Positions 1 to 16,363 of a stretch of DNA of 19,366 bases are shown one piece after another. Within the stretch, counting starts at the first letter, position 1; each line of letters opens with the position of its first letter. A program made the translations under genes and the position numbers. The notes under the pieces are model-generated. The model searched no databases, was not told the origin of the DNA, and worked only from the letters and a program-made list of their open reading frames with translations. The DNA comes from Archangiaceae bacterium (GTDB lineage: Bacteria > Myxococcota > Myxococcia > Myxococcales > Myxococcaceae): positions 1-19,366 of the forward strand of contig JAYVCD010000313.1 in the NCBI GenBank assembly GCA_043750125.1, in the 5' to 3' direction.

Positions 1-1207
1 GCGAGAAGCCGAGCACGGTGGCGGCCTCGAGCTGACCCACCGGAACGCTTTCCAGCCCGGCGCGGTAGTTCTCGGCTTCGGCGGCGGCGTAGTTCAGACC
101 GAGCGCGACGACTCCGGCGATGAAGGGCGAGAGCTTCAGGCCGAGCTCGGGCAGGCCGAAGTAGATCATCGTCAGCTGAATCAGCAGCGGCGTGCCGCGG
201 AAGAACTCGATGTACATCACGCAGGCCAGGCTCACCGGCTTCGGCCCATACCTTCGGCCCATCGCCAGCGAAATTCCGAGCACGATCGCCAGCATCATCG
301 CGAGCAAAGAGACTGCGATCGACAGCAGCGCGCCCTTGAAAAACAGGGGCAGCACCTGGGGGTAGCGGGTCGTCACCCGTTCCCAGAACGGAGGGAGCTT
401 TCCGACCGCCGCGCGCCACCTCAGGAACTCTTCGGGGGAGCTGCGCGCGATGGGGTCGGGGTCGCCAAAGAGCTGGGCGATTTCCGGACTCCACAGGCCC
501 CACTTCTCGTAGAGCGCGCGCAGCGTTCCATCGTGGATCAACGCCTCGAGCGCAGCGTTGACCTTCGCGCGCCGCGGTTCATCGTCGAGGCGAAAAGCGA
601 TCGCATATTCGACGCTTCCGAAGTCGCCCGGAACGGTCTGAAAGTCCGGGTCGATCTCTGCGTAGAAGAGCGCAATCGGAGCGTCGAGCAGCACCGCGTC
701 GATGCGCCCGAGCTTCAGGTCGGCGTAGATCTGATCCTGCCCGCCTTCGTAGGTCCGCACTTCGGCGCCGGCGCGGGTCAAAATCCGTTCGGCCATCGAG
801 CCGGGAAGCGTTCCGACCGGGCGGCCCTTCAGCGCGTCCATCGTCCGCGGCGCGCGCGCATCGCCGTTGCGAATGGTCAGTCGCTCGGGGGCGGAAAAGT
901 ACGGGCGGCTGAGCAGCACGACGCGCGTCTTCTCGTCGGCGACTTCGATCCCGTTGAGCGCGATGTCGAAATCGCCGCGTGCGAGCAGCTCGATCAGCTT
1001 GTCCCAGGGACCTTGAATCGGCCGGGCGCGCACCCCGAGCTTCCGGCCGAGCTCACCGGCGAGCTCCACCTCGAAGCCGACGAGGTGATTGGGGTCGGTC
1101 GGGTCTTGAAAGACGTAGGGCGCGCCGCCTTGCGCGTCTGCGCCCCACCGCAGTTCGGGTTCAGGGGCGGCCGCCAGCAGCGCGGCCGCGAGGAGAAGAG
1201 CGTTCAT
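1..1207 (-). CDS. Polar amino acid ABC transporter, fused substrate-binding domain plus permease (3' end runs off the window)
   Basis: Not in the ORF track because it has no stop in the window. Manual translation from ATG 1207 gives MNALLLAAALLAAAPEPELRWGADAQGGAPYVFQDP...VGFEVELA...LARGDFDIALNG...LSRPYF (family 3 binding protein), then TM helices and YIEFFRGTPLLIQL...AAEAENYRAGLESVPVGQLEAATVLG (HisM/GlnP permease with EAA loop). Confidence 0.92.
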   Translation of the reverse strand, partial: MNALLLAAALLAAAPEPELRWGADAQGGAPYVFQDPTDPNHLVGFEVELAGELGRKLGVRARPIQGPWDKLIELLARGDFDIALNGIEVADEKTRVVLLSRPYFSAPERLTIRNGDARAPRTMDALKGRPVGTLPGSMAERILTRAGAEVRTYEGGQDQIYADLKLGRIDAVLLDAPIALFYAEIDPDFQTVPGDFGSVEYAIAFRLDDEPRRAKVNAALEALIHDGTLRALYEKWGLWSPEIAQLFGDPDPIARSSPEEFLRWRAAVGKLPPFWERVTTRYPQVLPLFFKGALLSIAVSLLAMMLAIVLGISLAMGRRYGPKPVSLACVMYIEFFRGTPLLIQLTMIYFGLPELGLKLSPFIAGVVALGLNYAAAEAENYRAGLESVPVGQLEAATVLGFS

Positions 1208-1250
1208 GCTTCAGCCCGAAGCGGCCCAGCTCAGGCCCAGGCTCCGCACG

Positions 1251-2324
1251 TCACGGAGGGCCGGCAAAGCTCGACGTGCCGCTCAGCGATTCGAGGAACG
1301 CCTTGAGCTGCGCCTTCTCTTTTGCCGAGAGCATCACCCGCTTGAGCTTCGGGTCGAGCAGCGGGTTCTTCGTTCCGCCCGACGCCATGATGTCGATTGC
1401 GTCGTTCAGGGTCTTCGCCGAGCCGTCGTGAAACCAGGGCCCGGTGAGCGCGACGTTGCGCAGGGAAGGCGTCTTGAACTTGCCCTCGTCCTTGTCGTCC
1501 TTGGTCGCGTCCTTTCGGCCGTGGTCCCGCTCGGCCTCGGGCTTGTCGAAGCCGATGCCGGTGTTGTGGAAGTCGACATCGCTGAACAGCGGCAGCACGT
1601 GGCAGTTGATGCAGCCGGCCTTCTTGAAGACCTCGAAGCCCTTCTGGGCGTCGGCGGAAATCGCGGTCTTATCGCCCGCCTGGAACTTGTCGTACGGCGC
1701 GTTGGCGTTGTTGAGCGCACGAAGGAACGACGCGAGCGCCTTGGGGACGTTGTCGGCGGTCGCGACTTCACCGTAGGCGCGCTTGAAGCGGGCCTTCACT
1801 TCCGGGTTCACGTTGAGCGCGGTGGCGATCGCGGCCGGGTCGGCTCCCAGCTGCCCTTTCCACGCCGCGGCGCTGACCGCTTCGAGGGTGGGGGCGCGGC
1901 CGTCCCAGTACCAGCTCGCGTGGTAGGCGAGGTTGAGCACGGTGGGGGTGTTGCGCTTGTTCATCGCTCCGCCGACCTTTGCGTCGACCGCGTTCGAGGT
2001 GGCCCACGCCTTCTCGGGAAGGTGGCAGCCCGAGCAGCTCATCGAGCCGTCCTTCGAGAGCGCCTTGTCGAAGAAGAGGCGGTGGCCGAGGTCGACCGTG
2101 TCGTCGGTGAAAGGGCTGTCGACCGGCGCCTCGACAGACGCCAGCGGAGGCGAGCGCGGCGGAGCAGGCGGTGAGGCCGGCAAGGTGATGACCGGCTCGG
2201 GCGCGGGCGCCGGTTTCTCTGAACCGGGAGCAGGAGCGGGAGCAGGCTCAGGAGCCGGCTGGGGTGCGGATTTGCACGCGATCACGGCGAGGACGAGCAC
2301 AGAAAGCAGCAGGCGGATTCGCAT
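1251..2324 (-). CDS. Di-haem cytochrome c peroxidase (CcP/MauG family), predicted lipoprotein
   Basis: Two CXXCH motifs (CSGCH, CINCH) plus LGHRLFFDKALS, RNTPTVLN, WDGRAPTLE and FKTPSLRNVALTGPWFHDGS. Start moved to ATG 2324, which gives the signal peptide MRIRLLLSVLVLAVIA-C followed by a Pro/Ala linker. Confidence 0.92.
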   Translation of the reverse strand: MRIRLLLSVLVLAVIACKSAPQPAPEPAPAPAPGSEKPAPAPEPVITLPASPPAPPRSPPLASVEAPVDSPFTDDTVDLGHRLFFDKALSKDGSMSCSGCHLPEKAWATSNAVDAKVGGAMNKRNTPTVLNLAYHASWYWDGRAPTLEAVSAAAWKGQLGADPAAIATALNVNPEVKARFKRAYGEVATADNVPKALASFLRALNNANAPYDKFQAGDKTAISADAQKGFEVFKKAGCINCHVLPLFSDVDFHNTGIGFDKPEAERDHGRKDATKDDKDEGKFKTPSLRNVALTGPWFHDGSAKTLNDAIDIMASGGTKNPLLDPKLKRVMLSAKEKAQLKAFLESLSGTSSFAGPP

Positions 2325-2380
2325 GGGGCGGGGGTTTAACGCGAAGTCGGGGCAACGGCACGAGGTACAGTTTGCGCCGC

Positions 2381-2635
2381 GTGAAACGGGCAGACACGAG
2401 GCGATCAGCGTCCGAGCGGCTCGAGGCAGCATTCGGGCTCACGGATTTAGGGCTTCAGATGATGCGTCAGCGACTGCGACGCGAGAACCCCAAAGCAAGC
2501 CGCCAAAAACTGACTACGCTGTTCGAGCAATGGCTGCTGCGAAGACCCCCGGACGCCGAAGGAAAGCCAGTGTCCCCCGAGCGGCTCCTTCGCCAACTCT
2601 TGCTGCCGCCGCGACAGGTGCACACTTCGCACTGA
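2381..2635 (+). CDS. Small helical protein upstream of a nucleotidyltransferase (putative antitoxin-like partner); 3' end possibly aberrant
   Basis: From GTG 2381: ...ASERLEAAFGLTDLGLQMMRQRLRRENPKASRQKLTTLFEQWLLRRP. It resembles the short proteins I recall preceding DUF6036/AbiEii-like nucleotidyltransferases, and its tail overlaps the NTase N-terminus in another frame. Confidence 0.6.
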   Translation: MKRADTRRSASERLEAAFGLTDLGLQMMRQRLRRENPKASRQKLTTLFEQWLLRRPPDAEGKPVSPERLLRQLLLPPRQVHTSH

Positions 2636-3161
2636 TTGGTGGCCAGGCGGTCGCCGCGCGGACCGAGCCCCGCTTCACCGAAGACGTGGACCTCGCCGTC
2701 TCGGTCGCCGATGACGAGCAAGCCCAGCAGATCGTTTTCGGCCTCACTCAGAGGGCTGGCGAATGAAAGGCGCGGTCGAACAGAGAGCGACCGGTCGGCT
2801 CGCGACCGCTCGACTCTCTGCCCCTGGAGAGAAAACGGACGTGTTGGTCGACTTGTTGTTTGCCAGTTCTGGCATCGAGCCCGAAATCGTTGCTGCGGCG
2901 ACACCGATGCGACTGCTCGAGATTTCGTCGCTCCCGGTCGCGACCGTCGGGCACTTGATCGCGATGAAGGTCCTCTCAGAATCGAAGGCCCGGCTTCAGG
3001 ACAGAATCGATCTCGAAAAGCTTCTCACCCTCGCAACCACCCACGACCTCAACCTCGCAGAGCGCAGCTTGCAGTTGATTTTGTCCCGCGGATTTGCACG
3101 CAAGAAGAACCTGATCGAGCTGCTGGGGAAGCTCCGCCGAAGGCACAGCTCGAGGAATTGA
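2600..3161 (+). pseudogene. Frameshifted DNA pol-beta superfamily nucleotidyltransferase (DUF6036/AbiEii-like)
   Basis: One frame gives HFALIGGQAVAARTEPRFTEDVDLAV (GG and DxD motifs) and stops at 2766. The C-terminal half (VEQRATGRLATARL...VDLLFASSGIEPEIV...HLIAMKVLS...RLQDRIDL) is in another frame, 2763..3161. Adding one G in gagggctggc (2751-2760) joins them as LTQRGWRMKGAVEQ. No suitable start codon precedes the N-terminal half. Confidence 0.75.
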
Positions 3162-3173
3162 CTGAGCCTCAGA

Positions 3174-3381
3174 TCAGGGCGCGTGGGCTTCGATCCACTT
3201 CAATACGTCGGCCTTCACCTGCGCCTTGAGCGGCTCGTGCGGCAAGTCGTGCCATTGCTTCGCATAGAGCTTGAGCGGCTTGTCCGTGCAGGACCAACAG
3301 AGGAAGGGTCAGCTCTTCGCAGCGGGCAAAGATGTCCTCGATTCCGTTGGCCGCCGCGCGCGCCGAACGGGCCGGCAGGTC
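3174..3381 (-). pseudogene. Relic of the C-terminus of an alpha/beta hydrolase (lysophospholipase / Hydrolase_4-like)
   Basis: The minus strand reads DLPARSARAAANGIEDIFARCEELTLPLLVLHG, then after a frame change near 3285 reads TDKPLKLYAKQWHDLPHEPLKAQVKADVLKWIEAHAP*. The segment normally lying between LHG and DKxLKLY, and the whole N-terminus, are missing. Confidence 0.7.
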
Positions 3382-3442
3382 GCGGCGCGGAGCTCAAAGG
3401 CAGAGACCGGGCGAATGTCCTTCAGCTGCGCTGCGATTGCCG

Positions 3443-4156
3443 TCAGAAAGAGTAGCCGAGCCCCGCGCTCACCCTTTGCTCTCCGAGCGGGACGAGCTCG
3501 ACCGAGAGATCAAACCCGGCCGGGAGCCCGACCACCAGGCCGGCGCCGACCTGAAAATGGTAGATGTCGGTGCCCACGTCGGAACGTCCGCCTTCGACCG
3601 CCACCACCGGCCCGCCGAACGCGCGTCCGACCAGGTAGGGTGTGAATCGTTTGGCGAAGGTGTAGCCGGCGGTCACCGAGCCGCGAAGGTCGGCGGCGTA
3701 GAGCGCGTCATCGCCTCCGCGGGAAGGCACGGCCAGCGACACGGCGACCGAAGCGCCGACCATCACGAACGGAATGGGGCCTTTTTGATCGACGATCGAC
3801 CAGGAAGCCCCCACCCCGGCGAAGAGCCCACGCAGGACCTCGGCCCCCGGGGCTCCGAGCCGCGCAAAGGCGATGCCGCCCCCGCTGACTTGCAGGGTGA
3901 CGCGCTTGGAAAGCTTCTTCTCGAAGGAAGCGCCCAGGGCCATTTCCTCGATGTCGAGAAAGCCCCGCTCGGCGAAGGACAGGCGCGAACGAAACGCGCC
4001 GAACGCGAGGCCGACCCGGGAATCGGGCGGCTTTTCTCCGTGACACAGCTGAGCCAACCCGGTCGGACCGACCGGAGCCGAGATGCCTCAAGCACGCGCG
4101 TCGCGGGGGTACAACACAACAAGAAGCAGGGTGGCGGCGGTCAGGATGATGCGCAT
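3443..4156 (-). CDS. Outer-membrane beta-barrel-like protein with an in-frame TGA at codon 23 (candidate selenoprotein, 237 aa)
   Basis: ATG 4156 gives MRIILTAATLLLVVLYPRDARA, then TGA (4090-4088), then GISAPVGPTGLAQLCHGE..., in frame with ORF 3443..4057. The product has alternating hydrophobic strands and ends in SAGLGYSF with a terminal Phe. A SECIS-like hairpin follows the TGA. Confidence 0.7.
4054..4081 (-). promoter_or_regulatory. Candidate bacterial SECIS hairpin
   Basis: mRNA reads UGA-GGCAUC-UCGGC-U-CCGGUC-GGUCC-GACCGG-GUUGG. This gives a perfect 6-bp upper stem (4075..4059), a bulged U and a G-U-rich lower stem. The loop GGUC falls at +22..+25 counting the U of UGA as +1. Confidence 0.65.
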
Positions 4157-4168
4157 GGGGAACGCGAA

Positions 4169-4411
4169 CTAACGTGGCGCGTCGGAAGATTCCAGTCGTC
4201 GTGTTTCCGCGTGCTTTTTTATGTCTCGCCAGAGGTACGCGGTCACCGCGGCGATGACGCCAAGGTCGTCGAGCCAGCCGAAGAAGGGGATGAAATCGGG
4301 GATGGCATCGAGGGGCATCACCCCGTAGAGCGCTCCCAGAAAGACGAGGCTCTTCTTCGCCAGCGAGACCTGGCCGTCGCGGAAATATCGGCTGATGTCT
4401 TGCAGCTTCAT
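4169..4411 (-). CDS. DUF1232 / YkvA family small membrane protein
   Basis: Motif LYGVMPLDAIPDFIPFFGWLDDLGVI. AGGAG lies 5 nt before ATG 4411; ATG 4414 is an alternative start. Confidence 0.88.
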   Translation of the reverse strand: MKLQDISRYFRDGQVSLAKKSLVFLGALYGVMPLDAIPDFIPFFGWLDDLGVIAAVTAYLWRDIKKHAETRRLESSDAPR

Positions 4412-4473
4412 CATTGCTCCTACGAACGAAGAGGCTGACCCATTCCACCGCCTGGTCCAGACTGAAGCAACCC

Positions 4474-5256
4474 ATGGGAAAGAAGAAGATCAAGCTGAGC
4501 GACAAGACGCCCAACGCCTATGACTTTGTGGTCAACCCGAAGGGGACGCTGACCCTGGCCGACATCGACCCGGCCGAGTCGATTGGCGAAACGAAAGAAG
4601 AGTACGAAGAAGCGCTGAAGAAGCTGCAGAAGAAGTTGTTCGAGCTGCAGGTGCGCTACTTCCTCGAAAAGCGGCGGGCGATCATCGTGTTCGAAGGCTG
4701 GGACGCGGCGGGCAAGGGAGGGGTGATCAAGCGCTTGACCTCTCTGATGGACCCCCGAGGCTACAAGGTGTGGCCGATTGCCGCTCCGAAGGACGCCGAG
4801 GCGCGGCACCATTACCTCTGGCGGTTCAACACCCGGACGCCTGAGCTGGGCGAGCTGTCGGTCTTCGATCGCAGCTGGTACGGCCGGGTGCTGGTCGAGC
4901 GGGTCGAAGGGTTCGCCTCTGCAGACCAGTGGCAGCGGGCCTACGACGAAATCAACGCCTTCGAGCGGACGCTGACCGACGACGGAATCGTGATTCTCAA
5001 GTTCTTCCTCCACATCGACAAGAAGACCCAGCTCGAGCGCTTCAAGGCCCGGGAAAAAGACCCGGTGAAGAACTTCAAAATCGGCCCGGACGACTGGCGC
5101 AATCGCAAGCGCTGGCCGGATTACGAGCGGGCGATTCAGGACATGTTTGATCGCACCCACCGGCCCGACGCGCCGTGGCACGCGGTGCCGGCCAACGACA
5201 AGAAGTACGCGCGCATCGCCGTGCTGCGCAGCTGCATCGAAGCGCTCGACGTCTGA
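4474..5256 (+). CDS. ppk2: Polyphosphate kinase 2 family protein (polyphosphate:nucleotide phosphotransferase)
   Basis: Walker A region FEGWDAAGKGG, plus HHYLWRF, FDRSWYGRVLVERVEG, EINAFER, KFFLHI, DWRNR and APWHAVPANDKKYARI. Start taken at ATG 4474. Confidence 0.93.
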   Translation: MGKKKIKLSDKTPNAYDFVVNPKGTLTLADIDPAESIGETKEEYEEALKKLQKKLFELQVRYFLEKRRAIIVFEGWDAAGKGGVIKRLTSLMDPRGYKVWPIAAPKDAEARHHYLWRFNTRTPELGELSVFDRSWYGRVLVERVEGFASADQWQRAYDEINAFERTLTDDGIVILKFFLHIDKKTQLERFKAREKDPVKNFKIGPDDWRNRKRWPDYERAIQDMFDRTHRPDAPWHAVPANDKKYARIAVLRSCIEALDV

Positions 5257-5906
5257 TGACCGGGCCGCACATCCCTCCCGCCCCGGCCCCGCTCGAGCCG
5301 GGCCAGTCGTTTCCCGGAGGCTGGTCGGTCGTCACCCTCTGGCCGTTGAGGCTGGAGCAGCAGGTCGATTCCGAGCTGCTGCGCCGGTCGGTGGTGCCGC
5401 TGGGGCCGCTGCTGCTGGGCGCGTTCGTGATTGCCGCCAGCTGGGAAGCACCTCCGGGAATTCGGCTTGCCGCCTGGCCGGTGGGCTTCGCGCTGCTGGC
5501 GGTCTTCGGGCTGGGGGTGCTGAACCTGATTCGCAGCGTGCGGCGAAAGCGAGAAGGCATCGTCCTCGCCGTCGACGCGCAGAGCGTGACCGGCTACCCC
5601 GAAGCGCGTTCCTGGCTCGGCGACTACTTCGTCCGGCTGGGCACGCATCCGCGGTCGGCGGTGAAGAGCGTGAGCCTGTGCGTCTACCGCGACCCGAAGC
5701 GGGGAACTTCGGCGCGCGCGAAGGTTCGCATCGAGCTCGAAGCCGACGCGGCGCTGGTGGGCCCCGAGGCGTCGGGCGACGACGCGCAGTGGCCGGCGGT
5801 GCGAGAGGCGCTGTTGCCTGCGGCGGCGGCGATCGCTGCGGCGCTGGGAAAGAGGCTGGTGCTCGACGACCCGGAAACGAAACAGCGGTTCGAAGTCGAC
5901 TGGTGA
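5256..5906 (+). CDS. Hypothetical membrane protein with two predicted TM helices and a soluble C-terminal domain
   Basis: ATG overlaps the ppk2 stop (TGATG). Two hydrophobic stretches: VVPLGPLLLGAFVIAASW and WPVGFALLAVFGLGVLNLI. Confidence 0.7.
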   Translation: MTGPHIPPAPAPLEPGQSFPGGWSVVTLWPLRLEQQVDSELLRRSVVPLGPLLLGAFVIAASWEAPPGIRLAAWPVGFALLAVFGLGVLNLIRSVRRKREGIVLAVDAQSVTGYPEARSWLGDYFVRLGTHPRSAVKSVSLCVYRDPKRGTSARAKVRIELEADAALVGPEASGDDAQWPAVREALLPAAAAIAAALGKRLVLDDPETKQRFEVDW

Positions 5907-5910
5907 AGCT

Positions 5911-6588
5911 TCAGGCCCACAGGCCCAACGCGACCAGCACCCCGACCAGCCGCAGCACGCTGTCCGGGCTGGTCGAGCCGGCGAGGACCGCGTCGAGAGA
6001 CTTTCCCGCGGCGAGCTCGCGGCAGACGCGCAGCTCGCTGGGGCCCAGCTCGAGCCGGGTGAAGACTTCGGCTTTGAGGTCGAGCGCCAGGGGCTGCTTC
6101 GGCCGTTCGGCGATGGAGTCGCGAATCGCCTGAAGGTTGATTCGCTTGCGGAAGGCGGCGGTCACGGCCCCCTCAAGGGGAATTCGAACCATCGGCTCGA
6201 CTCCAACACTGGCCACCAGGGTCACGGTGCCGGAAGACGCCATCGCGTTTTCCAGCCGCAGCCGCGCCTGGCGTTCGAGCGCGCTCGCCAGGTCGGTGGG
6301 GGTCAACAGCCCGTCGGCGATCAACTGATGCCCCAACAGGGTGCCCCGCTTTCGGGCTTCGTTGGCGACGGGCTCGATCAACACCGGATCCAGCCGACCT
6401 TCGGCGGCGAGCATGTTGCCCAGGCGCTCGGAGACGACCGGGCTCTCAGAGTTGATGAGACAGCCGCGCGAGACGTGGAGCACCCGCATGGCCCCGTCGG
6501 CCTTCGAGAGTGCTTTGAACGACCCGTCGGCCGAGCGCCGGGTGAGGTCGGAAAGAACCAACAGCACCATTGGATTCAGACTGGGCAT
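5911..6588 (-). CDS. Hypothetical protein, DUF4388-like, with MshEN-like RLG/LLG motifs
   Basis: ERLGNMLAAEGRL...LLGHQLIADGLLTPTDLASALERQ and a C-terminal helical segment ending VLRLVGVLVALGL. It starts 10 nt after the upstream stop. Confidence 0.7.
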   Translation of the reverse strand: MPSLNPMVLLVLSDLTRRSADGSFKALSKADGAMRVLHVSRGCLINSESPVVSERLGNMLAAEGRLDPVLIEPVANEARKRGTLLGHQLIADGLLTPTDLASALERQARLRLENAMASSGTVTLVASVGVEPMVRIPLEGAVTAAFRKRINLQAIRDSIAERPKQPLALDLKAEVFTRLELGPSELRVCRELAAGKSLDAVLAGSTSPDSVLRLVGVLVALGLWA

Positions 6589-6598
6589 CCGTCAGTTC

Positions 6599-7828
6599 TC
6601 AGCCATTGAGGCTTGCGACTTCGAGGTTCGAGCGCTCGGTCATCAAAGCGAGCTCAGCGTCGGTCGGGAAGCCCTTTGACTTCCAGCGCTCGGGTCGGTC
6701 GTCGGTGCGGGTCATCAAGCGGCCGACGACTTCGAGCGCGATTTCGAAACGGGCGGGCCAGACCTTCGGCTTCAATTCCCCTTCTCCGACGAGGCGGACG
6801 AAGTCGATTCGATCCGTTCGCGGCAGCAGTCCGTCGACTTCTTCCGTCCACGGAGTGCAGGTGTAGATTTCGCCCCCGTCGGTCCGGAAAGCCGAGAAGC
6901 GGGAGACGAATTGCGCCTCGCCTTTGTATTCGTACCAGGCGTCGAGCAGCTCTTTTTGCTGGGTGTAGGAATTGGCGCGCGACTGCAGCGCGAGGAAGTA
7001 GAGCTTGTCGAACGCGGCGCTGTCAGCCGGAGGTAGCCAGGCCTGCCAGCCGTCGCCGACCTGCTTGAAGGCGACTCCGGTGATGGCCCGCGGGTCCTGC
7101 ACCGCGTCGCGGGCGATTTCCGCCATGTTCGCCAGCGCCTGCGGGTCTTCGCTGCCGGCGATCATCAAGACGCTCGCGGCGGGGATCATCGCGACGTGTT
7201 CGCCCTTCACCTGCAGTCGCGAAATTTCTTCGCCCAGCAGCAGGCGGGCCGCGTCGTGACCATCGCCCCACGGCGAGGCCCACAGCCCGGGAGCCAACTG
7301 GCGAAACGGTTCTTTCGAGCGCAGCCGAAGGTTTGCGACCGCGTGCTGTTCGAGCTGGGCCAGCGACATGCCCCAGAGCGTCAGGCGCGAGGCGGTCACG
7401 TCCATCGCGGACGTAGGCAAGTCGAACACCGCGTTGACTTCGAGCTCGTCGTTGAAGTGCCGGTAGGGAATCTGCAGCAGGGCGCGTTCGGCTTCGAGCT
7501 CGACCTGGGCCGCCAGTTGGCGCTCGAGCACCGCGTGGTAGACGGACTCGCGCAGCCGGGGGAGCACGCCGCGCAGCACCTCGTCGAGGGGCGGAAACGC
7601 GCCGTTGTCGAGCAGGCTCCACAGGCGCCGCTGCAGCACCTTCTCGCGCTCGTGGAGCGCGGCGGCGGTGAACTCGTTGTACCCGTGCTTGAGAAAGCAA
7701 AAGCGCCAGAGGCCCTTTTCGCCTTCGACGATCAGGCAGAAGCGGGCGGCGTCGAAGCGAATCTCTCGCGTCATCCCCCGCGCTCGCAGGTGCCCGGTGG
7801 CCAAGTCTGCAAATTCGGCGGGAGTCAT
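6599..7828 (-). CDS. Hypothetical protein with a DUF1444/YtpQ-like central region
   Basis: Long ORF with GC-rich codon usage. AVANLR...WGDGHDAARLLL...LQVKGEHVAMIP...LMIAG resembles DUF1444. Start taken at ATG 7828 (MTPAEF) because the upstream extension overlaps the yjbQ relic. Confidence 0.7.
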   Translation of the reverse strand: MTPAEFADLATGHLRARGMTREIRFDAARFCLIVEGEKGLWRFCFLKHGYNEFTAAALHEREKVLQRRLWSLLDNGAFPPLDEVLRGVLPRLRESVYHAVLERQLAAQVELEAERALLQIPYRHFNDELEVNAVFDLPTSAMDVTASRLTLWGMSLAQLEQHAVANLRLRSKEPFRQLAPGLWASPWGDGHDAARLLLGEEISRLQVKGEHVAMIPAASVLMIAGSEDPQALANMAEIARDAVQDPRAITGVAFKQVGDGWQAWLPPADSAAFDKLYFLALQSRANSYTQQKELLDAWYEYKGEAQFVSRFSAFRTDGGEIYTCTPWTEEVDGLLPRTDRIDFVRLVGEGELKPKVWPARFEIALEVVGRLMTRTDDRPERWKSKGFPTDAELALMTERSNLEVASLNG

Positions 7829-7873
7829 CTTTGGGTTGCGAGCCTTACTACGAGTTGTCAGGGTCTTTAAGGT

Positions 7874-8088
7874 ATGTCGGTACTTCGTCAGGCCCAACAC
7901 ACGCTGCAGTTGGCGACCCGGGGGCGGGGGCTTTACGTCAATCACCCCTCAGGTGTCGCGGTGGGTTGAGGAAGAACAGCGGGCGGACGGGCTGTGCGTG
8001 CGCGGTTCCGGTCCAGGGGCTGTACCTGTTCGAGCACCGGCACGCGCCGAAAGTTAGACGCGTCGTCCTCCACTACCTCGGCACGTGA
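7874..8088 (+). pseudogene. yjbQ: Relic of a YjbQ/UPF0047 (secondary thiamine-phosphate synthase family) gene
   Basis: ATG 7874 gives MSVLRQAQHTLQLATRGRGLY, a frameshift gives ITPQVSRWVEEEQRADGLCV, and the sequence then jumps to QGLYLFEHRHAPKVRRVVLHYLGT*. These match the YjbQ N- and C-termini; the conserved core (HTSA, ENADP, AHI) is absent. Confidence 0.75.
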
Positions 8089-8109
8089 TGATGTTGTAGT
8101 CGTAGGGAA

Positions 8110-8931
8110 ATGACGCTCGACGAGCTGAAGATTCACGTCACCCAGGCTTATGCCGACCGCGAGAAGCTGAAGGAATACCTCTACGCGCGCGCGGTCCGCG
8201 ACACGGTCGAGCTGCTCGACCGGGGAGCGATTCGGGTGGCGGCGAAGGGACCGGACGGCTGGCAGGTTCACGCCTGGGTGAAAGAGGCAATCTTGCTGTA
8301 CTTCGCATTGCAGGAAATGAAGGTGATCGAGATGGCGCCCTTCGAGTTCCACGACAAGATTCCGCTGAAGAAGGGCCTGGCGGACGCGGGCGTTCGGGTG
8401 GTGCCTCCGGGGACGATTCGGTACGGGGCGTTCGTCGAACGGGGCGCGGTGGTGATGCCGGGGTACGTGAACATCGGGGCCTATGTCGGCGGCGGGACGA
8501 TGGTCGACACCTGGGCCACGGTGGGCAGCTGCGCGCAGATTGGCCGCAACGTGCACCTCTCTGGCGGAGTGGGAATCGGCGGAGTGCTCGAGCCGTCGGG
8601 CGCGACTCCGGTGATCATCGAAGACAACTGCTTCATCGGCAGCCGCTGCGTGGTGGTCGAAGGGGTGATCGTCGAGGAAGAAGCGGTGCTGGGCGCCAAC
8701 GTGGTGCTCACCTCGTCGACCCACATCATCGATGTCAGCGGGCCGGAAGAAGTGGTGCTCAAGGGCCGAATTCCCCGGCGCAGCGTGGTGATTCCCGGAA
8801 TGCGGACGCGAAAGTTTCCCGCCGGCGAGTACCTGACCCCGTGTGCGTTGATCATCGGGCAGCGGAAGGCGAGCACGGATCAGAAGACCTCGCTCAACGC
8901 CGCGCTTCGGGACTTCGCGGTGTCGGTGTGA
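8110..8931 (+). CDS. dapD: 2,3,4,5-tetrahydropyridine-2,6-dicarboxylate N-succinyltransferase
   Basis: LLDRGAIRVA, WVKEAILLYF, DKIPLK, RVVPPG, hexapeptide repeats MPGYVNIGAYV...MVDTWATVGSCAQIG, LSGGVGIGGVLEP and KTSLNAALR. Confidence 0.96.
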   Translation: MTLDELKIHVTQAYADREKLKEYLYARAVRDTVELLDRGAIRVAAKGPDGWQVHAWVKEAILLYFALQEMKVIEMAPFEFHDKIPLKKGLADAGVRVVPPGTIRYGAFVERGAVVMPGYVNIGAYVGGGTMVDTWATVGSCAQIGRNVHLSGGVGIGGVLEPSGATPVIIEDNCFIGSRCVVVEGVIVEEEAVLGANVVLTSSTHIIDVSGPEEVVLKGRIPRRSVVIPGMRTRKFPAGEYLTPCALIIGQRKASTDQKTSLNAALRDFAVSV

Positions 8932-9983
8932 CCCTCGCCGAACGGGCGCTGCGGCTGGTCGAGATCCCCAGCCCGATTGGGCACGAGCGGCAGATTGCAG
9001 ACTTCGTCGAGCAGTGGGCCCGCGGGCGCTTTCCCGCAGACCAGGTTTTTCGGCACAGCCATTCGCTGGTGGTGGGAGACCGCTTCGACCCCCGGCCGCA
9101 CGTGGCGCTGATTGGACACCTCGACACCGTGCCCGCACATGGGCAGGCGCCCGAGGCGCGGATCGAAGCGGGGCGGCTGCACGGCCTGGGCAGCTCGGAC
9201 ATGAAGGGCGCGCTGGCGGTGATGATGTCGCTGGCCGAGCGGCTGAAGCTCGACCGGCTGCCGGTGAATTTGCTGCTCGTCTTTTACGAGCGGGAAGAAG
9301 GGCCGTATCTGGACAACGGGCTGGGCCCGCTGATGGCCCAGGTGCCCGAGCTGTCGAAGCTCGCGTTTGGAATCGCGATGGAACCGACCGACAACCGGGT
9401 GCAGGTCGGATGCATGGGCACGCTGCACGCGACGGTGAGCTTCGAGGGGAAGAGCGCGCACTCGGCCCGGCCGTGGCAGGGGAAGAACGCGATTCATGCC
9501 GCGGGAACGCTGCTGACCGAGCTCGAGGCGCGGGGGCGGCACGAGGTGCGGACGGACGGGTTTGCGTTTTACGAAGTGATGACCGCGACGCTGGCGAAGG
9601 GCGGGCGCGCGCGGAACGTGGTCCCCGACGCGTTCGAGCTGAACTTGAACTACCGGTTCTCGCCCTCGAAGAGCCTGGTTCAGGCGCAGGAAGACGTGCG
9701 GGCGCTGGTCGCCGGGCGCGCTTCGGTCGAGTTCACCGACCTCTCGCCGTCGGGGCGGGTGTGCGGGGGAAATGCCTACTTTCAAAAGCTGCAGAAGCTG
9801 ACCGCGCTCGAGGCCGAGTCGAAGCAGGCGTGGACGGATGTCGCGCGTTTCTCGCAGGCGGGGGTCGATGCGGTGAACTTCGGGCCCGGAGAATCAGCGC
9901 AGGCGCACCAGCGCGATGAGAGCGCGCCCGTCGCCGCGTTGGAACAGGCGCACCGGATTCTGACTTCGTTCTTCGAAAGCTAG
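8928..9983 (+). CDS. dapE: Succinyl-diaminopimelate desuccinylase (M20 peptidase family)
   Basis: GHLDTVP, GLGSSDMKG, YEREEG, MEPT, AHSARPWQG, WTDVARF, NFGPG and AH motifs. The GTG start overlaps the dapD stop (GTGA). Confidence 0.93.
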   Translation: MTLAERALRLVEIPSPIGHERQIADFVEQWARGRFPADQVFRHSHSLVVGDRFDPRPHVALIGHLDTVPAHGQAPEARIEAGRLHGLGSSDMKGALAVMMSLAERLKLDRLPVNLLLVFYEREEGPYLDNGLGPLMAQVPELSKLAFGIAMEPTDNRVQVGCMGTLHATVSFEGKSAHSARPWQGKNAIHAAGTLLTELEARGRHEVRTDGFAFYEVMTATLAKGGRARNVVPDAFELNLNYRFSPSKSLVQAQEDVRALVAGRASVEFTDLSPSGRVCGGNAYFQKLQKLTALEAESKQAWTDVARFSQAGVDAVNFGPGESAQAHQRDESAPVAALEQAHRILTSFFES

Positions 9984-10104
9984 CTCGCCAACGGTCGCAA
10001 GTTCCCGCGGCGCGCCCAGCTCGAGGAGCCGCCTGCGCGTCTGCTCGAGGTTCGAATGGGGAAACACCAGGAAGTAACCGTACTCGCCGGTCTTGCACCT
10101 TCGG

Positions 10105-10212
10105 CGCTACCTTGCAGCGGAGCTGATCGAGGGAGAGTCGTTGATGCAGCGGATCAAGCGCGGACCATTGGCTGAGGACGACTTGCTCTCCCAGGGTCCG
10201 GCGGGAAGGTGA
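10105..10212 (+). pseudogene. Short fragment resembling Ser/Thr protein kinase subdomain V
   Basis: RYLAAELIEGESLMQRIKRGPLAEDDLL resembles the YLVMELxEGESLxxRLxxGPL segment of Hanks-type kinases. There is no start codon and no other subdomain. Confidence 0.55.
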
Positions 10213-10226
10213 TCGTCGCAGCTCGC

Positions 10227-10263
10227 TCGACATATCACGAGCCGGGCGTTTAGCATCATGATG
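10227..10263 (+). promoter_or_regulatory. Putative sigma70-type promoter and palindromic operator of vapBC
   Basis: TCGACA (10227-10232), an 18-nt spacer and TAGCAT (10251-10256), ending 6 nt before the GTG start with no SD sequence. The perfect palindrome CATCATGATG (10254-10263) overlaps the -10 element and the start. Confidence 0.6.
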
Positions 10264-10502
10264 TGCGAACCACTGTCACCATTGATGATGCTTTGATGAT
10301 GCAGTTGAAGACAGAGATGCGCCGCGCCGGCGAGTCTCTTCGAGAGACCCTCGAACGGGTCTTGCGGCGTGGGCTGCAGCCGCAGACTCAGTCGAAACGC
10401 CCGCGCTTCAAGATCAAGGCGCGTCCGATGGGCCTGAAGCCTGGGTACAGCTACGACAACATCGGCGAGCTGCTGTCCCGAATGGACCGAGAAGGCATCT
10501 AA
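10263..10502 (+). CDS. vapB: VapB-type antitoxin (ribbon-helix-helix)
   Basis: N-terminus MRTTVTIDDAL, 79 aa, stop overlapping the PIN gene start (TAATG). Confidence 0.88.
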   Translation: MRTTVTIDDALMMQLKTEMRRAGESLRETLERVLRRGLQPQTQSKRPRFKIKARPMGLKPGYSYDNIGELLSRMDREGI

Positions 10503-10939
10503 TGCACGTCCTCGACGCCAACATCCTGCTCTACGCCTACGACGCTGACAGCGCCCACCACAAACGGGTCTTCGCAGCTCTCGACGAATTGCTTGCCACT
10601 GGCGAAACGGTTTACCTGCCATGGCTGGCGGTCGTGGCGTTCGTTCGAGTCGCCAGCTCGCCGGGGCTGCTGAAGAGACCCTTGAGCCTGAGTGACGCGT
10701 TCGGGATAATCGAAGAGCTGTTCGACGAACCGAACGTTCGAGTTCTCGACCCTGGGCCGACTCATCTGCGCGAGTTTCGTGACGCGGCTGAGGATGGGCA
10801 GGTGACGGGTCCGATGGTGACCGACGCACATCTCGCAGCACTGGCAATCGAGAACGGGATTCAATTCTGGTCCGCCGACAAGGACTTCTCGCGATTCTCA
10901 CGGCTTCGCTGGAAGAACCCCCTGCTGCGCGCGAAATAG
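10502..10939 (+). CDS. vapC: VapC PIN-domain toxin
   Basis: VLDANILLYA, VTDAHLAALAIE and SADKDFSRF; 145 aa. Confidence 0.93.
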   Translation: MHVLDANILLYAYDADSAHHKRVFAALDELLATGETVYLPWLAVVAFVRVASSPGLLKRPLSLSDAFGIIEELFDEPNVRVLDPGPTHLREFRDAAEDGQVTGPMVTDAHLAALAIENGIQFWSADKDFSRFSRLRWKNPLLRAK

Positions 10940-11003
10940 TGTCTTTAAATACACTGAGGAACTGATTGTTGCGACACTGATAAGCTGGGGTGCATGATTT
11001 CGC

Positions 11004-11068
11004 TGCTGGCGCAGCGCAATCCAGGACGCTGGACCAAAACTGGCCAACGTTGCCGAATCGGGGCTGAA
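11004..11068 (+). repeat. Dispersed 65-bp direct repeat, copy 1 (copy 2 at 19194..19258)
   Basis: Ungapped manual alignment gives 58/65 identities, with core GCAATCCAGGAnGCTGGACCAAAACTGGCCnACGTTGCCGAA. Confidence 0.85.
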
Positions 11069-11112
11069 GTGGCCGAAAGTTCGGCGCGTGCAGCCCCCCG
11101 CTCGATTTTTCC

Positions 11113-11319
11113 TCAAGGTTTCTTCGGCGCGGGCGGCGGCGGGGTGAGAGTTCTCACTGGAAACGGTTCGCCTTGATCGTCGATTCCGGGCGCAAAGCTG
11201 GTCATCTTTCCTGGCTTTCCTTTTCCATCGGGCGTGGGCAACGCCTTCCGCAGTCCGGCGCTGTCCTTCTTCATCCGCTCGAGAATTTCTTTCTCTTCTT
11301 TCGTCAGCTCGTCGCTCAC
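11113..11319 (-). CDS. 68-aa protein coupled to the annexin-ART gene (candidate immunity or accessory protein)
   Basis: GTG start overlaps the upstream TGA (GTGA), with GAGGTG 5 nt upstream. It has a charged N-terminal helix (MSDELTKEEKEILERMKKDS) and a Pro-rich tail. Confidence 0.7.
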   Translation of the reverse strand: MSDELTKEEKEILERMKKDSAGLRKALPTPDGKGKPGKMTSFAPGIDDQGEPFPVRTLTPPPPAPKKP

Positions 11320-14021
11320 TTCACCACCTCGCTCAAATAGACCGTGGTGCGCCCGGTCGTCTTGTCGAGGTCCTTGGACAACACCTTGAACGCGGTGCCC
11401 GGCGTGAAGAGGACCTCTTTCTCGGCCGCGTAGTCCGACAGAAACGAGACATCGCGCCCATTTTTCACCGCGTTGATGACGAACAAGGTGTTGGCGTTGC
11501 CGAAGTTCTTGGCGACCGACTCATCGAGGGTCGTGCTGAGGAACGCCTTCTCTGCGATCACCTCGCCCTTGACGTACTTGTCGAGGACCGCGGGATCCAG
11601 ATGGGCCCCACGAAACACCGTCCCCTGGTGGGACGGCAGCTGATTGAGCGCAGAAGAGGCTCCCTTCACTCCGCTCGCCATTCCTTCCTGCGTCTTCCAC
11701 AGCGCGGTTTCACCTCGGAGCGCCGAGTTCATCTTCCGGTAGTAGTCACCGGTGTAAGCCTTGAGCGCCATCAGATCTTCTTTCGGAATCTTCGCGATAC
11801 CGGGGTTGGCGGCCTGCAGATCCCTGACCTTGCTCTCGTACTTGTAGGCATTTTCGGTCAGCCATTCCTTCGATTGGGCCCGGGTCGACACATCGGATTG
11901 GTACCGGGAAAGATCGATCTTCTCGCCCCCTACGTCGCTGTTGGTCGACACGTAGACGACCTTCGGCGGTGCCAGACCCTTGAGGCCGCCGATCGTCCCG
12001 CTGGTCGCCGCTCCGAACGCAGCGCCGAGCGCGCCGGCTTTGGCGACATTGCCTACTCCCGCGACAATTCCCTTGTCCCAGGTGCTGTCGGTGAACGCGG
12101 AGCCGCTCGCGCCGTTGATCCCACCGCTCACTGCGCCCTGGGTCGCGCCGTCGACCGCGGAGATCGCGACCCGCGCCGCCACGCTGCCTTCCGCCTTGAG
12201 CACCGAGCCCATCGCACCGCTCACCACCTTCTGCGCCGCACCACCGCCGATCAAGCTCGAGACTCCGTCGGCCGCGCCAATCGCCCCGTCGAGCGCTGCG
12301 GCGCCGGCGCTGTAGCCCTGGCCGGCGATCAAGCCCTTGGTCACGACCCGGGCGGTGGCTCCCCCGCCCGCGCCTGCCAGGGCCGCGACCACCAGCGGAG
12401 TCCCCGCTCCTGCCGTCGCCACCGCGATTCCGATTGCGGCAGTCGTGGTTACAACCGTCGCCACTGCATTGCCTGCGCTGTCCTTCGATTCGCGGTACAG
12501 CGAGACGTCGTCCTGGGTGTAGCCGATCAATTCGCCCAGCCGCTGGCTCTCGACCGCGTCGAGCTTTCCGTCTTTCTTCGCGTCTGCGTAGAAGGTGTTG
12601 GCGCGGTCGATGTTGCCGTCGAGCAGCTTGCCCTTGCCATTCAAGCCATCCATCACGAATTTGCTCGCCGCGTTCGCCAGGCCGCTGCGCTCGAAGGCGC
12701 GGGCCTCGTTCATCTTCTTCAGTGCCTGTTCGGGTGACGTGGGGATGCCAGCCAGGTTCTGCTTGAGCTCGAACGCATCACGGCCACCGACTTCGCCGCG
12801 CAGATCTTTGACCAGGTCGCTGCCGAACTGGGCCTGGTAGTCGGTCTTCAACTGGGCGATCTCTTCGCGGGTCCGGCCGGCGAGCACCTGAGTGATCTTC
12901 GCTTCGTCCGTTCCCATGCCCGTCATCGCCATTCGCAGCTCTTCGACGTCCGAGACCTTGCCGGTCGTCAGCAGCGACTTCGCGCGGAGCAAATCTTCAC
13001 CGCGCAGCTCTTTGTGCAGGTCGCTGAGCAGCTCGACGCCATTGACCTTCTTGTACTCGGCAGCGATCGCAGCCCGCTCGGTCCCCGATTTTCCCTCGAG
13101 GGTGGCCATGATCGCGCTCTCGTCGGTGCCCATGCCCTTCATCGCGGCTTTCAGCCTGGCCGCCGCCGCGCCCACTGCGTCGCCTTTGAGCAGCGCCTGC
13201 GCCTGCTGCCTCTGCGGGCCGGTGAGCTCTTTGTTCAGATCGGTGCTCAGCTCTGAGCCGGTTTGATTCTTGTACGACGCCAAAATCGCCGCGCGCGCTG
13301 CGGGGCCCTTGCCTTCGAGGGTCTTGAACAACGCTTGTTCGTCGGTCCCCAGCCCGGACATCGCCTTGCGCAGGCTCGCGGCATCGGCGCCCGCGGCATC
13401 TGAGTTGAGCAGCGCCCGGGCCCGGATCAGATCCGAGCCGCCCAGCTCTTTCGACAGCGCGTGGTCGAGGCTTCCGTGGTTCGTCTCGAAGCTCTGCTTG
13501 ATGGCCTTCAGGTCCTCGGGTTTCTTGCCTTGGAGCGCGCCGAACAGGCTCGACTCGTTGGTTCCCATTCCCTTCATCGCCCCGTAGAGCTGCTCGGCAG
13601 CCGCGGCCGACGCGTCACCTTTGAGCAGCGCTCGAGCGCGGGTCTGGTCCGTCCCCGACAGCTCTTTGTTCAGATCGGTGACCAGGTCGCGCTTGTAGTG
13701 ATCGGCGTACGTCTTCTTGATCGTGCCGATCTGCCCCGGCGATTTACCCTCGAGCGTGCGGAAGATCGCCGCCTCGTCGGTGCCCGCGCCGAAAATGCCG
13801 CCTTTCATCGCCTTGTACAGCGCGCTCGCATCGGGAGCGGCGTTGTAGGGCGGCTCCACGCTCGCCTTCACCGGCCGTGCTGCCACCGCCTTTGGAACCC
13901 AGCCCGCGGCGGGCTTGCTCACCAGTGTCGCCGCGACTGGCTTTGCGACAGGCACGGCTGCAGCAGTGGGTGCGATTGAGACTGGCTTGAGGGTTGCCGG
14001 GCGGCGGGGACCGTCGATCAC
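11316..14021 (-). CDS. Annexin-repeat protein with a hydrophobic Gly/Ala segment and a C-terminal R-S-E ADP-ribosyltransferase domain (~901 aa)
   Basis: Start set at GTG 14021 with AGGAG (14028-14032) 6 nt upstream. Five AMxGxGT(D/N)E repeats are followed by a hydrophobic run AVATVVTTTAAIGIAVATAGAGTPLVVAALAG. ART motifs are AYTG..Y..MNSALR, VFRG, FLSTT and EKEVLF. Confidence 0.9.
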   Translation of the reverse strand: MIDGPRRPATLKPVSIAPTAAAVPVAKPVAATLVSKPAAGWVPKAVAARPVKASVEPPYNAAPDASALYKAMKGGIFGAGTDEAAIFRTLEGKSPGQIGTIKKTYADHYKRDLVTDLNKELSGTDQTRARALLKGDASAAAAEQLYGAMKGMGTNESSLFGALQGKKPEDLKAIKQSFETNHGSLDHALSKELGGSDLIRARALLNSDAAGADAASLRKAMSGLGTDEQALFKTLEGKGPAARAAILASYKNQTGSELSTDLNKELTGPQRQQAQALLKGDAVGAAAARLKAAMKGMGTDESAIMATLEGKSGTERAAIAAEYKKVNGVELLSDLHKELRGEDLLRAKSLLTTGKVSDVEELRMAMTGMGTDEAKITQVLAGRTREEIAQLKTDYQAQFGSDLVKDLRGEVGGRDAFELKQNLAGIPTSPEQALKKMNEARAFERSGLANAASKFVMDGLNGKGKLLDGNIDRANTFYADAKKDGKLDAVESQRLGELIGYTQDDVSLYRESKDSAGNAVATVVTTTAAIGIAVATAGAGTPLVVAALAGAGGGATARVVTKGLIAGQGYSAGAAALDGAIGAADGVSSLIGGGAAQKVVSGAMGSVLKAEGSVAARVAISAVDGATQGAVSGGINGASGSAFTDSTWDKGIVAGVGNVAKAGALGAAFGAATSGTIGGLKGLAPPKVVYVSTNSDVGGEKIDLSRYQSDVSTRAQSKEWLTENAYKYESKVRDLQAANPGIAKIPKEDLMALKAYTGDYYRKMNSALRGETALWKTQEGMASGVKGASSALNQLPSHQGTVFRGAHLDPAVLDKYVKGEVIAEKAFLSTTLDESVAKNFGNANTLFVINAVKNGRDVSFLSDYAAEKEVLFTPGTAFKVLSKDLDKTTGRTTVYLSEVVK
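12750..13832 (-). repeat. Five tandem ~72-aa annexin repeats (protein-level repeat)
   Basis: GAGTDE, GMGTNE, GLGTDE, GMGTDE and GMGTDE are each followed by a Glu after 38, 37, 38, 38 and 38 residues (KELSG, KELGG, KELTG, KELRG, GEVGG). Confidence 0.9.
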
Positions 14022-14167
14022 TGAGGACTCCTGGTGAGGGGAAACGTGCCCCTGGATGAGACGAGGGCGAACGAAACCCGGATGCTCAAACAACACAACG
14101 TATATCGAAAGCCGTGGCAGATGTAACGGCACGTCCGCTCCGTGAAGCGGCCTCTTCCTGATGACTT

Positions 14168-14204
14168 CTCCCCCCGCGTCAGCTCGAGCGGGGGGGAGTT
14201 TTTT
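14168..14204 (+). terminator. Intrinsic terminator-like hairpin
   Basis: CTCCCCCCGC, a loop, GCGGGGGGGAG, then TTTTTT directly after. Confidence 0.6.
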
Positions 14205-14339
14205 GCCCGGGAACAACTCTTCGAACTCGGGTCGCAGGACACTGCCGCAGCCCTGCAGGTCGGGCCCCATTGCATTGGGCGTCCGAAGTCCGATCAACTA
14301 TGAGATATTGAGGGGCGTAGTAGCCCAGGGGGGGCTCAG

Positions 14340-15548: not shown

Positions 15549-15560
15549 GGTCGACGGGGG

Positions 15561-15972: not shown

Positions 15973-16150
15973 GTGCCTCCGCTTCCAACTGCCCACAGGT
16001 CGTTCGAAGCCGCCCCCCAGATCCCTACCGCAGTCACATCGTTGGGGCCACTTCCCCAGACGCCGTTGAGGTCCTCGCTCACGCCTGGAACCGCCCCCCA
16101 GCTCACCCCGTCGAAGTGAACGAGTCCGGCGCTGCCCGCTGGCCAGATGT
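15970..16150 (-). pseudogene. Fragment of a VWGSGxxDVWAVG-repeat beta-propeller protein
   Basis: VHFDGVSWGAVPGVSEDLNGVWGSGPNDVTAVG joins directly to IWGAASNDLWAVGSGGTI, so two repeat units are fused without their linker. The fragment abuts the broken transposase. Confidence 0.65.
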
Positions 16151-16363
16151 GACCCGCAGAGCGCTGCCCCACGCCAATCGCGCCGGTGCCGAGGGTCACT
16201 TCGTGGTGACTGCCTTGAAGGGCGGTCATGAGATCTCCACCCGCGCGACCCACGACCGGCCAGAACTGTGAAAGCGAATCGAGGACGCCCGCATCGAAAG
16301 ATGTAGACGGATCCACCCCGCCCGCTTTTCGTGGATGGAATGTCGCGTACGGTCCGCCCTGTG

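Follow-up and report, generated by a model that had tools for sequence, protein, structure and literature searches.

Introduction

Prokaryotic selenoproteins are catalogued in Table 1 of a May 2026 review, which comprises 119 families or subfamilies, most of its entries carrying NCBIfam or Pfam identifiers; the outer-membrane entries of that table are a GSU2204-family MtrB/PioB-like barrel (NF041027) and an FCYXU-type TonB-dependent receptor (NF049945) (PMC13188914). For the ext cluster of Geobacter, the selenoprotein proposed in the excerpted text of its description is the cytochrome ExtKL (PMC5877670), and not the porin ExtI, which had been cited as an outer-membrane selenoprotein in the initial annotation of the DNA analyzed here. 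In this work we analyze a gene on the minus strand (3443..4156) of a 19,366-nucleotide stretch of Archangiaceae bacterium DNA (assembly GCA_043750125.1, contig JAYVCD010000313.1, positions 1 to 19,366), referred to in its entirety as the window, in which an in-frame TGA directly follows a predicted signal peptide. Comparative analysis points, with a probability that we put at roughly 0.88, to a genuine and intact gene for an exported, selenocysteine (Sec)-containing barrel protein, whose mature N-terminal residue is predicted to be Sec itself.

The barrel family to which this gene belongs has no matching entry among the 119 families of Table 1 (PMC13188914), and no such protein is mentioned in the excerpted text of the deep-Sep paper, of a 2022 review or of Haft's 2022 preprint. 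Full-text searches covering the main texts of published papers returned nothing on myxobacterial selenoproteins of this kind. Judged from sequence comparison, the gene apparently represents a previously undescribed family of small outer-membrane barrel selenoproteins in Myxococcota.

Results

Gene structure and reading frame

The elements of the gene, all on the minus strand, are as follows.

3443..4156, minus strand: complete coding sequence of the putative selenoprotein precursor, 237 residues plus stop, with residue 23 as the predicted Sec
4091..4156, minus strand: predicted signal peptide MRIILTAATLLLVVLYPRDARA (codons 1-22), in which a basic n-region leads into an uncharged core of 14 residues and A-x-A precedes the TGA
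4088..4090, minus strand: in-frame TGA, probable Sec codon and predicted mature residue 1, at a conserved TGA/Cys column
4059..4075, minus strand: candidate bacterial Sec insertion sequence (bSECIS) hairpin CCGGUC-GGUCC-GACCGG, loop at 4069..4065, supported by covariation, synonymous constraint and published criteria
4043..4045, minus strand: sole Cys codon (TGT), mature residue 16, 15 residues past the TGA, candidate partner of the Sec
3446..4021, minus strand: predicted beta-barrel domain, mature residues 24-215, ending in GYSF
3443..3445, minus strand: true stop codon, likewise TGA, after the protein end ...GLGYSF

The gene occurs as a single copy in its genome. From the ATG at 4156-4154 it runs through the signal peptide (ending in PRDARA), the TGA and GISAPVGPTGLAQLC to the barrel and its GYSF end; directly after the TGA (4090-4088) the frame reads GISAPVGPTGLAQLCHGE and continues into a body rich in glycine and aromatic residues. 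An open-reading-frame (ORF) caller using translation table 11 places the start of the gene at a TTG at 4057. The initial annotation had described this TTG together with the ATG at 4156, the ARA-TGA junction, the lone Cys 15 residues on and the GYSF end, and all of these coordinates were confirmed.

Conservation of the TGA/Cys column

When prokaryotes were scanned with each species represented by a single genome, 74 homologous loci were obtained, nearly all of them from Myxococcota or from taxa bearing older deltaproteobacterial names. Seventy of the 74 could be read in frame at the N-terminal region (the four others, matching in the C-terminal part only, were dropped), and 69 of these 70 were assessable at the Sec column, the contig of the last one beginning past it. 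The column holds TGA in 49 loci, TGC in 18 and TGT in 2 (20 Cys), with Ala at position -1, Gly directly after the column and a second Cys 10-15 residues downstream in every one of the 69 rows. It had been suggested in the initial annotation that homologues of a true selenoprotein gene should keep TGA or Cys at this position and conserve the signal peptide, and the 49 TGA and 20 Cys codons, preceded throughout by Ala, agree with that expectation; the nonsense mutation that it had also considered is contradicted by the TGA codons of 49 of these loci, which all align to one column behind a signal peptide and ahead of Gly, a recurrence far beyond chance. Counted among the TGA loci is L088, the frame of which is broken by two frameshifts. 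Three related Sec-form genes (L057, L088 and L089) carry one or two frameshifts, which may be errors in metagenome-assembled genomes or real decay.

A profile search of 401 sampled Myxococcota genomes detected the family in 69 of them, concentrated in the source organism's own family (53 of 171 genomes) and in a second family belonging to the same order (13 of 67), with whole genera devoid of it (e.g. 0/32 and 0/21); 54 of the 73 match rows were flagged as holding one TGA. Ten further regions fetched from this sample comprised six TGA forms (L116 among them), from the second family of the same order and one other family, the remainder including a Cys form (L114), a Gly form with GGA at the column (L113) and a Thr form (L115). 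A broader profile search gathered 471 representatives at the 50%-identity level. In an examined subset, 56 representatives are truncated at the N-terminus, and of the 27 that are N-terminally complete, 26 have Cys at the Sec column and 26 have the second Cys.

Existing gene models mostly begin past the column. Among 5.8 billion predicted proteins, 34 relatives were found, nearly all of about 204 residues and starting just past the TGA column, as would be expected if a shared TGA stops gene callers; two of them begin with the peptide directly after the TGA, and one is longer, with a signal peptide and a Cys at the column. Four NCBI-sourced entries are among the relatives that start after it. 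The TGA codon has not been reassigned genome-wide and still acts as an ordinary stop, as it terminates 35 of the 46 Sec-form genes that are full-length.

The stretch was also recovered in public contigs from a single study, in four runs that are all of DNA, with no RNA run found to contain it. Contigs of two runs span 3443-4374 without a difference and possibly derive from the source sample itself; at the TGA region, the contigs of X3 and X4 offer a 196-nt variant contig with three differences, which adds nothing firm. Wherever contigs of the four runs cover the TGA, no other letter is seen there, a result that goes against the assembly error named in the initial annotation as a refuting outcome.

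The SECIS hairpin

Downstream of the UGA, the transcript contains a hairpin encoded in the codons for residues P-V-G-P-T-G, which begins 12 nt after the UGA and places its GGUCC loop 18 nt after it. Across 56 sequences (42 distinct), 95.6% of stem cells are paired, versus 19-54% when the partners are slid, and compensatory changes are found in five of the six stem pairs, a level reached by none of 500 shuffles. Stems of differing sequence occupy the same register in other members (CCCGUC/GACGGG, CCCGGC/GCCGGG, CCCAUC/GAUGGG, GCCGAC/GUCGGC and CCGUG/CACGG), including a low-GC genome (CCUGUUG/CAGCAGG). Synonymous sites are frozen within the hairpin: the loop residue Gly8 is encoded by GGT in 45 of 47 genes, versus 9.3% of 1369 other Gly codons in the same genes, while Val7 is GTC in 42/42 and Pro9 is CCG in 46/46.

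Published bSECIS criteria comprise a loop of 3-9 nt with G in its first two positions, a stem of 4-16 bp, a distance of 16-37 nt from the UGA and a minimum free energy (MFE) of at most -7.5 kcal/mol (PMC13188914, legend of Fig. 2). The hairpins of the family, with a 5-nt loop starting with GG, a stem of 6-7 bp, a spacing of 18 nt and MFE values of -9.9 to -18.3 kcal/mol, lie within all four ranges given in that legend. A search of the window with Rfam at the gathering threshold gave no matches. A covariance model (R1), for which 49 barrel hairpins served as the input, has the barrel site as its only significant match in the genome of the window (51 bits). The 20 Cys-form genes have no common hairpin.

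Two further selenoprotein genes were located in the same genome.

G000:C416 (L093), TGA at 1612: FdhA-like molybdoenzyme selenoprotein gene
G000:C278 (L001), TGA at 1528: SelD selenoprotein gene

The FdhA-like gene (CNRT-U-HAPSV) carries the hairpin CGUCGUC-GGUCU-GGCGACG, the loop of which also lies 18 nt after the UGA, and this element recurs in two related genomes; it constitutes a same-genome positive control for both the loop (GGUCY) and the 18-nt spacing. The SelD gene has its Sec TGA (TGG-U-GAKLSPG) followed by a hairpin downstream.

A small group of Polyangia records what may be an exchange between the two forms. L083 and L088 are TGA forms, with the stem GCCGAC-GGUCU-GUCGGC, within an otherwise all-Cys Polyangia clade, and L090, the sister of L083, has TGC and retains a near-identical hairpin. 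We read L083 and L090 as a recent Sec-Cys switch, in either direction.

Sec machinery

The genome of the window (460 contigs, 89.4% complete) contains selB, selD and tRNA-Sec above curated cut-offs, three of the components that the initial annotation had proposed to look for. Both selA and tRNA-Sec were found in all five related Sec-form genomes tested, which include two cultured Polyangium strains as well as the closest relative. Across the family, selB scores above its cut-off in 30 of 37 Sec-form genomes versus 3 of 20 Cys-form genomes.

Predicted signal peptide and barrel fold

Besides being invariant at -1, Ala predominates at -3 (63 of 69 rows, the others having Val in 3, Thr in 2 and Gly in 1), and 63 of the 69 pass a crude rule-of-thumb test for a positively charged n-region and a hydrophobic run. 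Position -2 holds His or a charged residue (Arg, Lys, Asp or Glu) in 47/69 rows, and in the window protein the charged c-region PRDARA lies between the hydrophobic core and the predicted cleavage site; cleavage after ARA was judged by the -3/-1 rule. In a lipobox, [LVI][ASTVI][GAS]C immediately follows the hydrophobic core (PROSITE PS51257 rule), a pattern from which most of the family departs at -3 and -2. Because of the charged residues at -2 and the charged c-region ahead of the site, the sequences argue for processing by signal peptidase I over lipobox processing.

The body of the protein is predicted to form an outer-membrane beta-barrel of roughly ten strands. A closed antiparallel barrel is supported by an AlphaFold2 model and a fold search, in line with the outer-membrane barrel seen in the initial annotation, and the C-terminal residue (beta-signal) is aromatic in 58 of 67 rows (F 55, Y 2, W 1, the remaining 9 being L). 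With an E-value limit of 1, neither Pfam nor NCBIfam gave a match to the window protein; weak matches to the Pfam family OMP_b-brl (PF13505) were seen for 12 of 150 family members, with a best E-value of 6e-6, and the language-model neighbours of the Cys homologue P0034 are labelled porin or OMP_b-brl. A profile search of PDB sequences returned nothing, the best E-value being 0.65. Between the second Cys and the first strand lie 8-28 residues rich in Pro, Glu, Gly and Ala, so that the U...C loop has the appearance of a flexible tail. In the topology usual for outer-membrane proteins, the N-terminal U-G-x13-C segment would face the periplasm. Invariant polar residues of the family are D134, R136, R156, D175, H178, Q180, E198 and E204, numbered along the mature protein. 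One member, P0146 (485 aa), was considered as a fused long form and rejected: its Arg/Pro-rich C-terminal extension has no Pfam match and is probably a missed stop.

Neighbouring genes and window context

Two intact genes flank the barrel gene.

4169..4414, minus strand: DUF1232 gene, upstream, 81 aa (Pfam PF06803, 3.4e-13)
1251..2432, minus strand: di-haem cytochrome c peroxidase/MauG-superfamily gene, downstream (Pfam CCP_MauG, 1.7e-42)

The DUF1232 gene lies upstream of the barrel gene in 28 related loci and, as its TAG stop (4171-4169) is only 12 nt before the barrel ATG, the two genes are probably co-transcribed. The di-haem gene follows the barrel gene on the same strand in 25 related loci, at a distance of no more than about 100 nt in seven of these, and a string of PPK2 (divergent), DUF1232, barrel and di-haem peroxidase genes is conserved in Myxococcaceae and Archangiaceae. 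The di-haem enzyme, for which MRIRLLL..VIAC is the probable start, has a lipobox (LAVIAC) and is probably a lipoprotein; its sequence also includes a linker rich in Pro and Ala and two CxxCH motifs. It scores 192 bits against the NCBIfam model for MbnH and 191 bits against that for MauG, the cut-offs being 363 and 444, and among solved structures it scores 151 bits with 3o5c and 146 bits with 1iqc, both canonical peroxidases, and 67 bits with MauG. Canonical peroxidases have a Met haem ligand near PYMHDG, a position at which this enzyme reads PWFHDG; its class may be either peroxidase or MauG-like.

Between the barrel and di-haem genes, at about 3393..3174 on the minus strand, two out-of-frame pieces, ...EELTLPLLVLHGQ... 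and ...KLYAKQWHDLPHEPLKAQVKADVLKWIEAHAP, look by eye like a decayed alpha/beta-hydrolase C-terminus. The decayed neighbours reported in the initial annotation are to that extent real, and the decay stops at these remnants, the barrel gene and both flanking genes being intact.

Single Polyangia loci have other genes beside the barrel gene: TerC (L066), a TerB-like gene (L070), a cytochrome c-rhodanese fusion (L076) and sulfite reductase with a CysK-like gene (L077). These neighbours hint at a chalcogen theme that is not conserved.

Three other regions of the window were recorded in passing.

11316..14297, minus strand: 993-residue protein with five annexin repeats (Annexin, 5.5e-57) and a C-terminal ADP-ribosyltransferase domain (ADPrib_exo_Tox, 1e-15)
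10263..10939, plus strand: 79-residue ORF followed by a PIN-domain ORF (Pfam PIN, 1.9e-12), with the look of a VapBC-type toxin-antitoxin pair
2..1207, minus strand, running off the window end: SBP_bac_3 and the start of BPD_transp_1, with the look of a fused binding protein-permease

The first of these proteins scores 74 bits against the NCBIfam model XopAI, under its cut-off, and the pairing of annexin repeats with an ADP-ribosyltransferase domain appears uncommon for a bacterium.

Discussion

Proposed mechanism

Under the reading put forward here, translation would start at ATG 4156 and the UGA at codon 23 would be decoded as Sec by SelB and tRNA-Sec, directed by the hairpin whose GGUCC loop lies 18 nt downstream within the P-V-G-P-T-G codons. 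As only 22 residues are made before the UGA, failed recoding would leave a mere signal-peptide fragment. The precursor would be exported by its classical signal peptide and cut after A-R-A, leaving Sec at the N-terminus if the -3/-1 rule holds for this site, and the body would fold into the outer-membrane barrel, with the U-G-x13-C tail held on its flexible linker in the periplasm. At the inner face of the outer membrane, a redox-active selenol/thiol pair could engage peroxides or disulfides through selenenic acid or selenylsulfide chemistry and, in Myxococcaceae and Archangiaceae, it would sit beside the lipoprotein di-haem peroxidase.

As to function, such a redox-active selenol/thiol loop is the reading that we tentatively favour, with less than even confidence, because Sec/Cys exchanges among homologues are known to mark redox or metal sites. 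A Sec-Cys pair would also fit the loss of the second Cys in the variants with Ser (P0063) or Thr (L115) at the Sec column. The Se-S pairing with the downstream Cys proposed in the initial annotation is in this respect plausible: the second Cys is kept in 69/69 rows with Sec or Cys and is gone from P0063 and L115, but it persists in L113, which has Gly at the column. More doubtful is a bolder version, in which the free 1,2-aminoselenol of an N-terminal Sec would combine with Cys16 into a catalytic or metal-capturing hook, tethered at the inner face of the outer membrane, and thereby define a new class of envelope selenoenzyme. If true, the retention of the Sec machinery in many soil Myxococcota would be due in large part to such a hook, and the UGA at codon 23 would make barrel insertion conditional on selenium supply.

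Evidence against the proposed reading

Several observations weigh against this reading. At the level of the gene, no Shine-Dalgarno sequence is seen before ATG 4156, as had been remarked in the initial annotation. At the level of the machinery, selA, the remaining item of the proposed search for sel genes, was not found in the 89.4%-complete assembly of the source genome, and selB falls below its cut-off in 7 of 37 Sec-form genomes, all fragmented assemblies, three of which have selB fragments at contig ends. When the N-terminal 25 residues are left out of the tree, two changes suffice for the Sec/Cys label, and the 20 Cys rows all fall into one well-supported clade, in which the Sec form L083 is nested beside a Cys form; the association with selB is therefore phylogenetically clustered and does not represent many independent events.

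The hairpin and the Sec residue itself present further difficulties. Folded alone, the window hairpin has no extra stability relative to shuffled sequences (z = -0.66), a comparison that is uninformative in DNA of 65% GC, and its support derives from covariation and register and not from folding energy, and the R1 model gives on the FdhA hairpins a local match only, which is not significant (8.3 bits, E 0.56). Natural variants without Sec or Cys at the column (Gly in L113, Thr in L115, Ser in P0063) mean that the residue is dispensable in some lineages; L113 retains the hairpin in addition to its second Cys, and selB is present in the genomes of both L113 and L115. In the structural model, the N-terminal 20 residues have low confidence, with a predicted local distance difference test (pLDDT) score of 56-77. 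Finally, flank clustering, together with Pfam annotation of 138 ORFs at nine Polyangia loci, found no conserved gene partner outside Myxococcia, and for this reason the assignment of function rests on analogy.

Alternative explanations

Among the alternatives, the one that survives best, although we consider it unlikely, is that the Sec/Cys pair acts as a hook for metals or metalloids (Cu, Hg, Ni, Se/Te species) and not as a redox catalyst. In that case, Cys16 and the selenolate would make up the binding site together with the amine of the N-terminus and with His or acidic residues close by. Many members do have a His 1-5 residues after the second Cys (CHGE, CTGKH, CSLxEHEEE), and the scattered Polyangia loci beside TerC, TerB, cytochrome c-rhodanese and sulfite reductase/CysK genes would suit such a role. 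These neighbours, however, vary among the loci without any one being conserved, the Polyangium forms lack the His, and there is no metal-resistance gene within the window.

It is a good deal less probable that the N-terminal peptide is the substrate of the neighbouring di-haem enzyme, which in a MauG/MbnH-like manner would generate a protein-derived cofactor or cross-link at the Sec/Cys. This proposal draws on the near-equal MbnH and MauG scores of the neighbour (192 and 191 bits), on its downstream, same-strand position in 25 loci (seven within about 100 nt) and on the oxidation of partner proteins by MauG-type enzymes, as described in the excerpted text of PMC11892367. Both scores are nevertheless far under the NCBIfam cut-offs of 363 and 444, the closest solved relatives are canonical peroxidases, with MauG itself at only 67 bits, and the Polyangia loci are without the linkage.

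Very improbable, in turn, is lipidation at position +1, which would make the protein a lipidated barrel acylated on Sec. The placement of Cys or Sec directly after a signal peptide with a small -1 residue (Ala in 69/69) is what this explanation would call for, and a few Cys forms do read ALAC, ASAC or VVAC. The family as a whole has a charged residue or His at -2 in 47/69 rows and Ala at -3 in 63/69, and the charged PRDARA separates the core from the site, whereas a real lipobox in the same genome, that of the di-haem enzyme (LAVIAC), sits directly after its core; the joint loss of both Cys, moreover, fits a Cys-Cys or Sec-Cys pair and not a thioether.

The last possibility, that no full-length protein is made and that the TGA arose by nonsense mutation, as a lesion in a pseudogene or through faulty assembly, can be dismissed. 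In its favour are the decayed hydrolase remnant adjoining the gene, the lack of a Shine-Dalgarno sequence before the ATG and the frameshifts in L057, L088 and L089. Against it, the same TGA column recurs in 49 species-level genomes and six further regions, conservation of both frame and sequence extends to either side of the codon, the hairpin downstream of it co-varies, and contigs of four runs (two of them maybe from the source sample) show no other letter where they cover it.

Significance

Databases record the family as hypothetical proteins of about 200 residues that start after the TGA, and its recognition would correct many gene models. The present inventory is dominated by cytoplasmic enzymes of anaerobes with the thioredoxin fold, and the family would bring to it a widespread, probably aerobic selenoprotein of soil bacteria. 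As a natural case of N-terminal Sec in the cell envelope, the protein would bear on selenium biochemistry and on the coordination of export with UGA recoding, and cultured carriers exist in the Polyangium strains of L051-L053, namely Polyangium jinanense SDU13 and Polyangium sp. y55x31 and 6x1.

Comparison with known systems

The family appears to use ordinary bacterial recoding; what sets it apart is its predicted outer-membrane location and the predicted position of Sec as first mature residue. In comparison with SelB/SECIS systems of the fdhF/FdhA type, the window gene has its GGUCY loop and 18-nt spacing in common with the FdhA-like gene found in its own genome, but its UGA is codon 23, right after the signal peptide, and its SECIS would be translated into the mature N-terminus. 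None of the families of Table 1 is described in that table as having Sec as its predicted first mature residue (PMC13188914). Like NF041027 and NF049945, the barrel described here is a Sec-containing outer-membrane beta-barrel predicted by comparative genomics; unlike it, they are much larger and belong to other families, the window protein having no NCBIfam match at E up to 1.

With the 10-stranded barrels OpcA (1k24) and the omptins OmpT and Pla, the likeness is one of fold similarity only: identity is 8-13%, there is no Pfam match, and those proteins are without the Sec/Cys N-terminal loop. With GPx, Prx and Dsb-like selenoproteins, the family shares Sec/Cys interchange and a second conserved Cys nearby, the usual signature of a redox site. 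It differs from them in having no thioredoxin fold, in a spacing of U-x9-14-C in place of UxxC or CxxU, and in carrying the pair on what appears to be the flexible tail of a membrane barrel.

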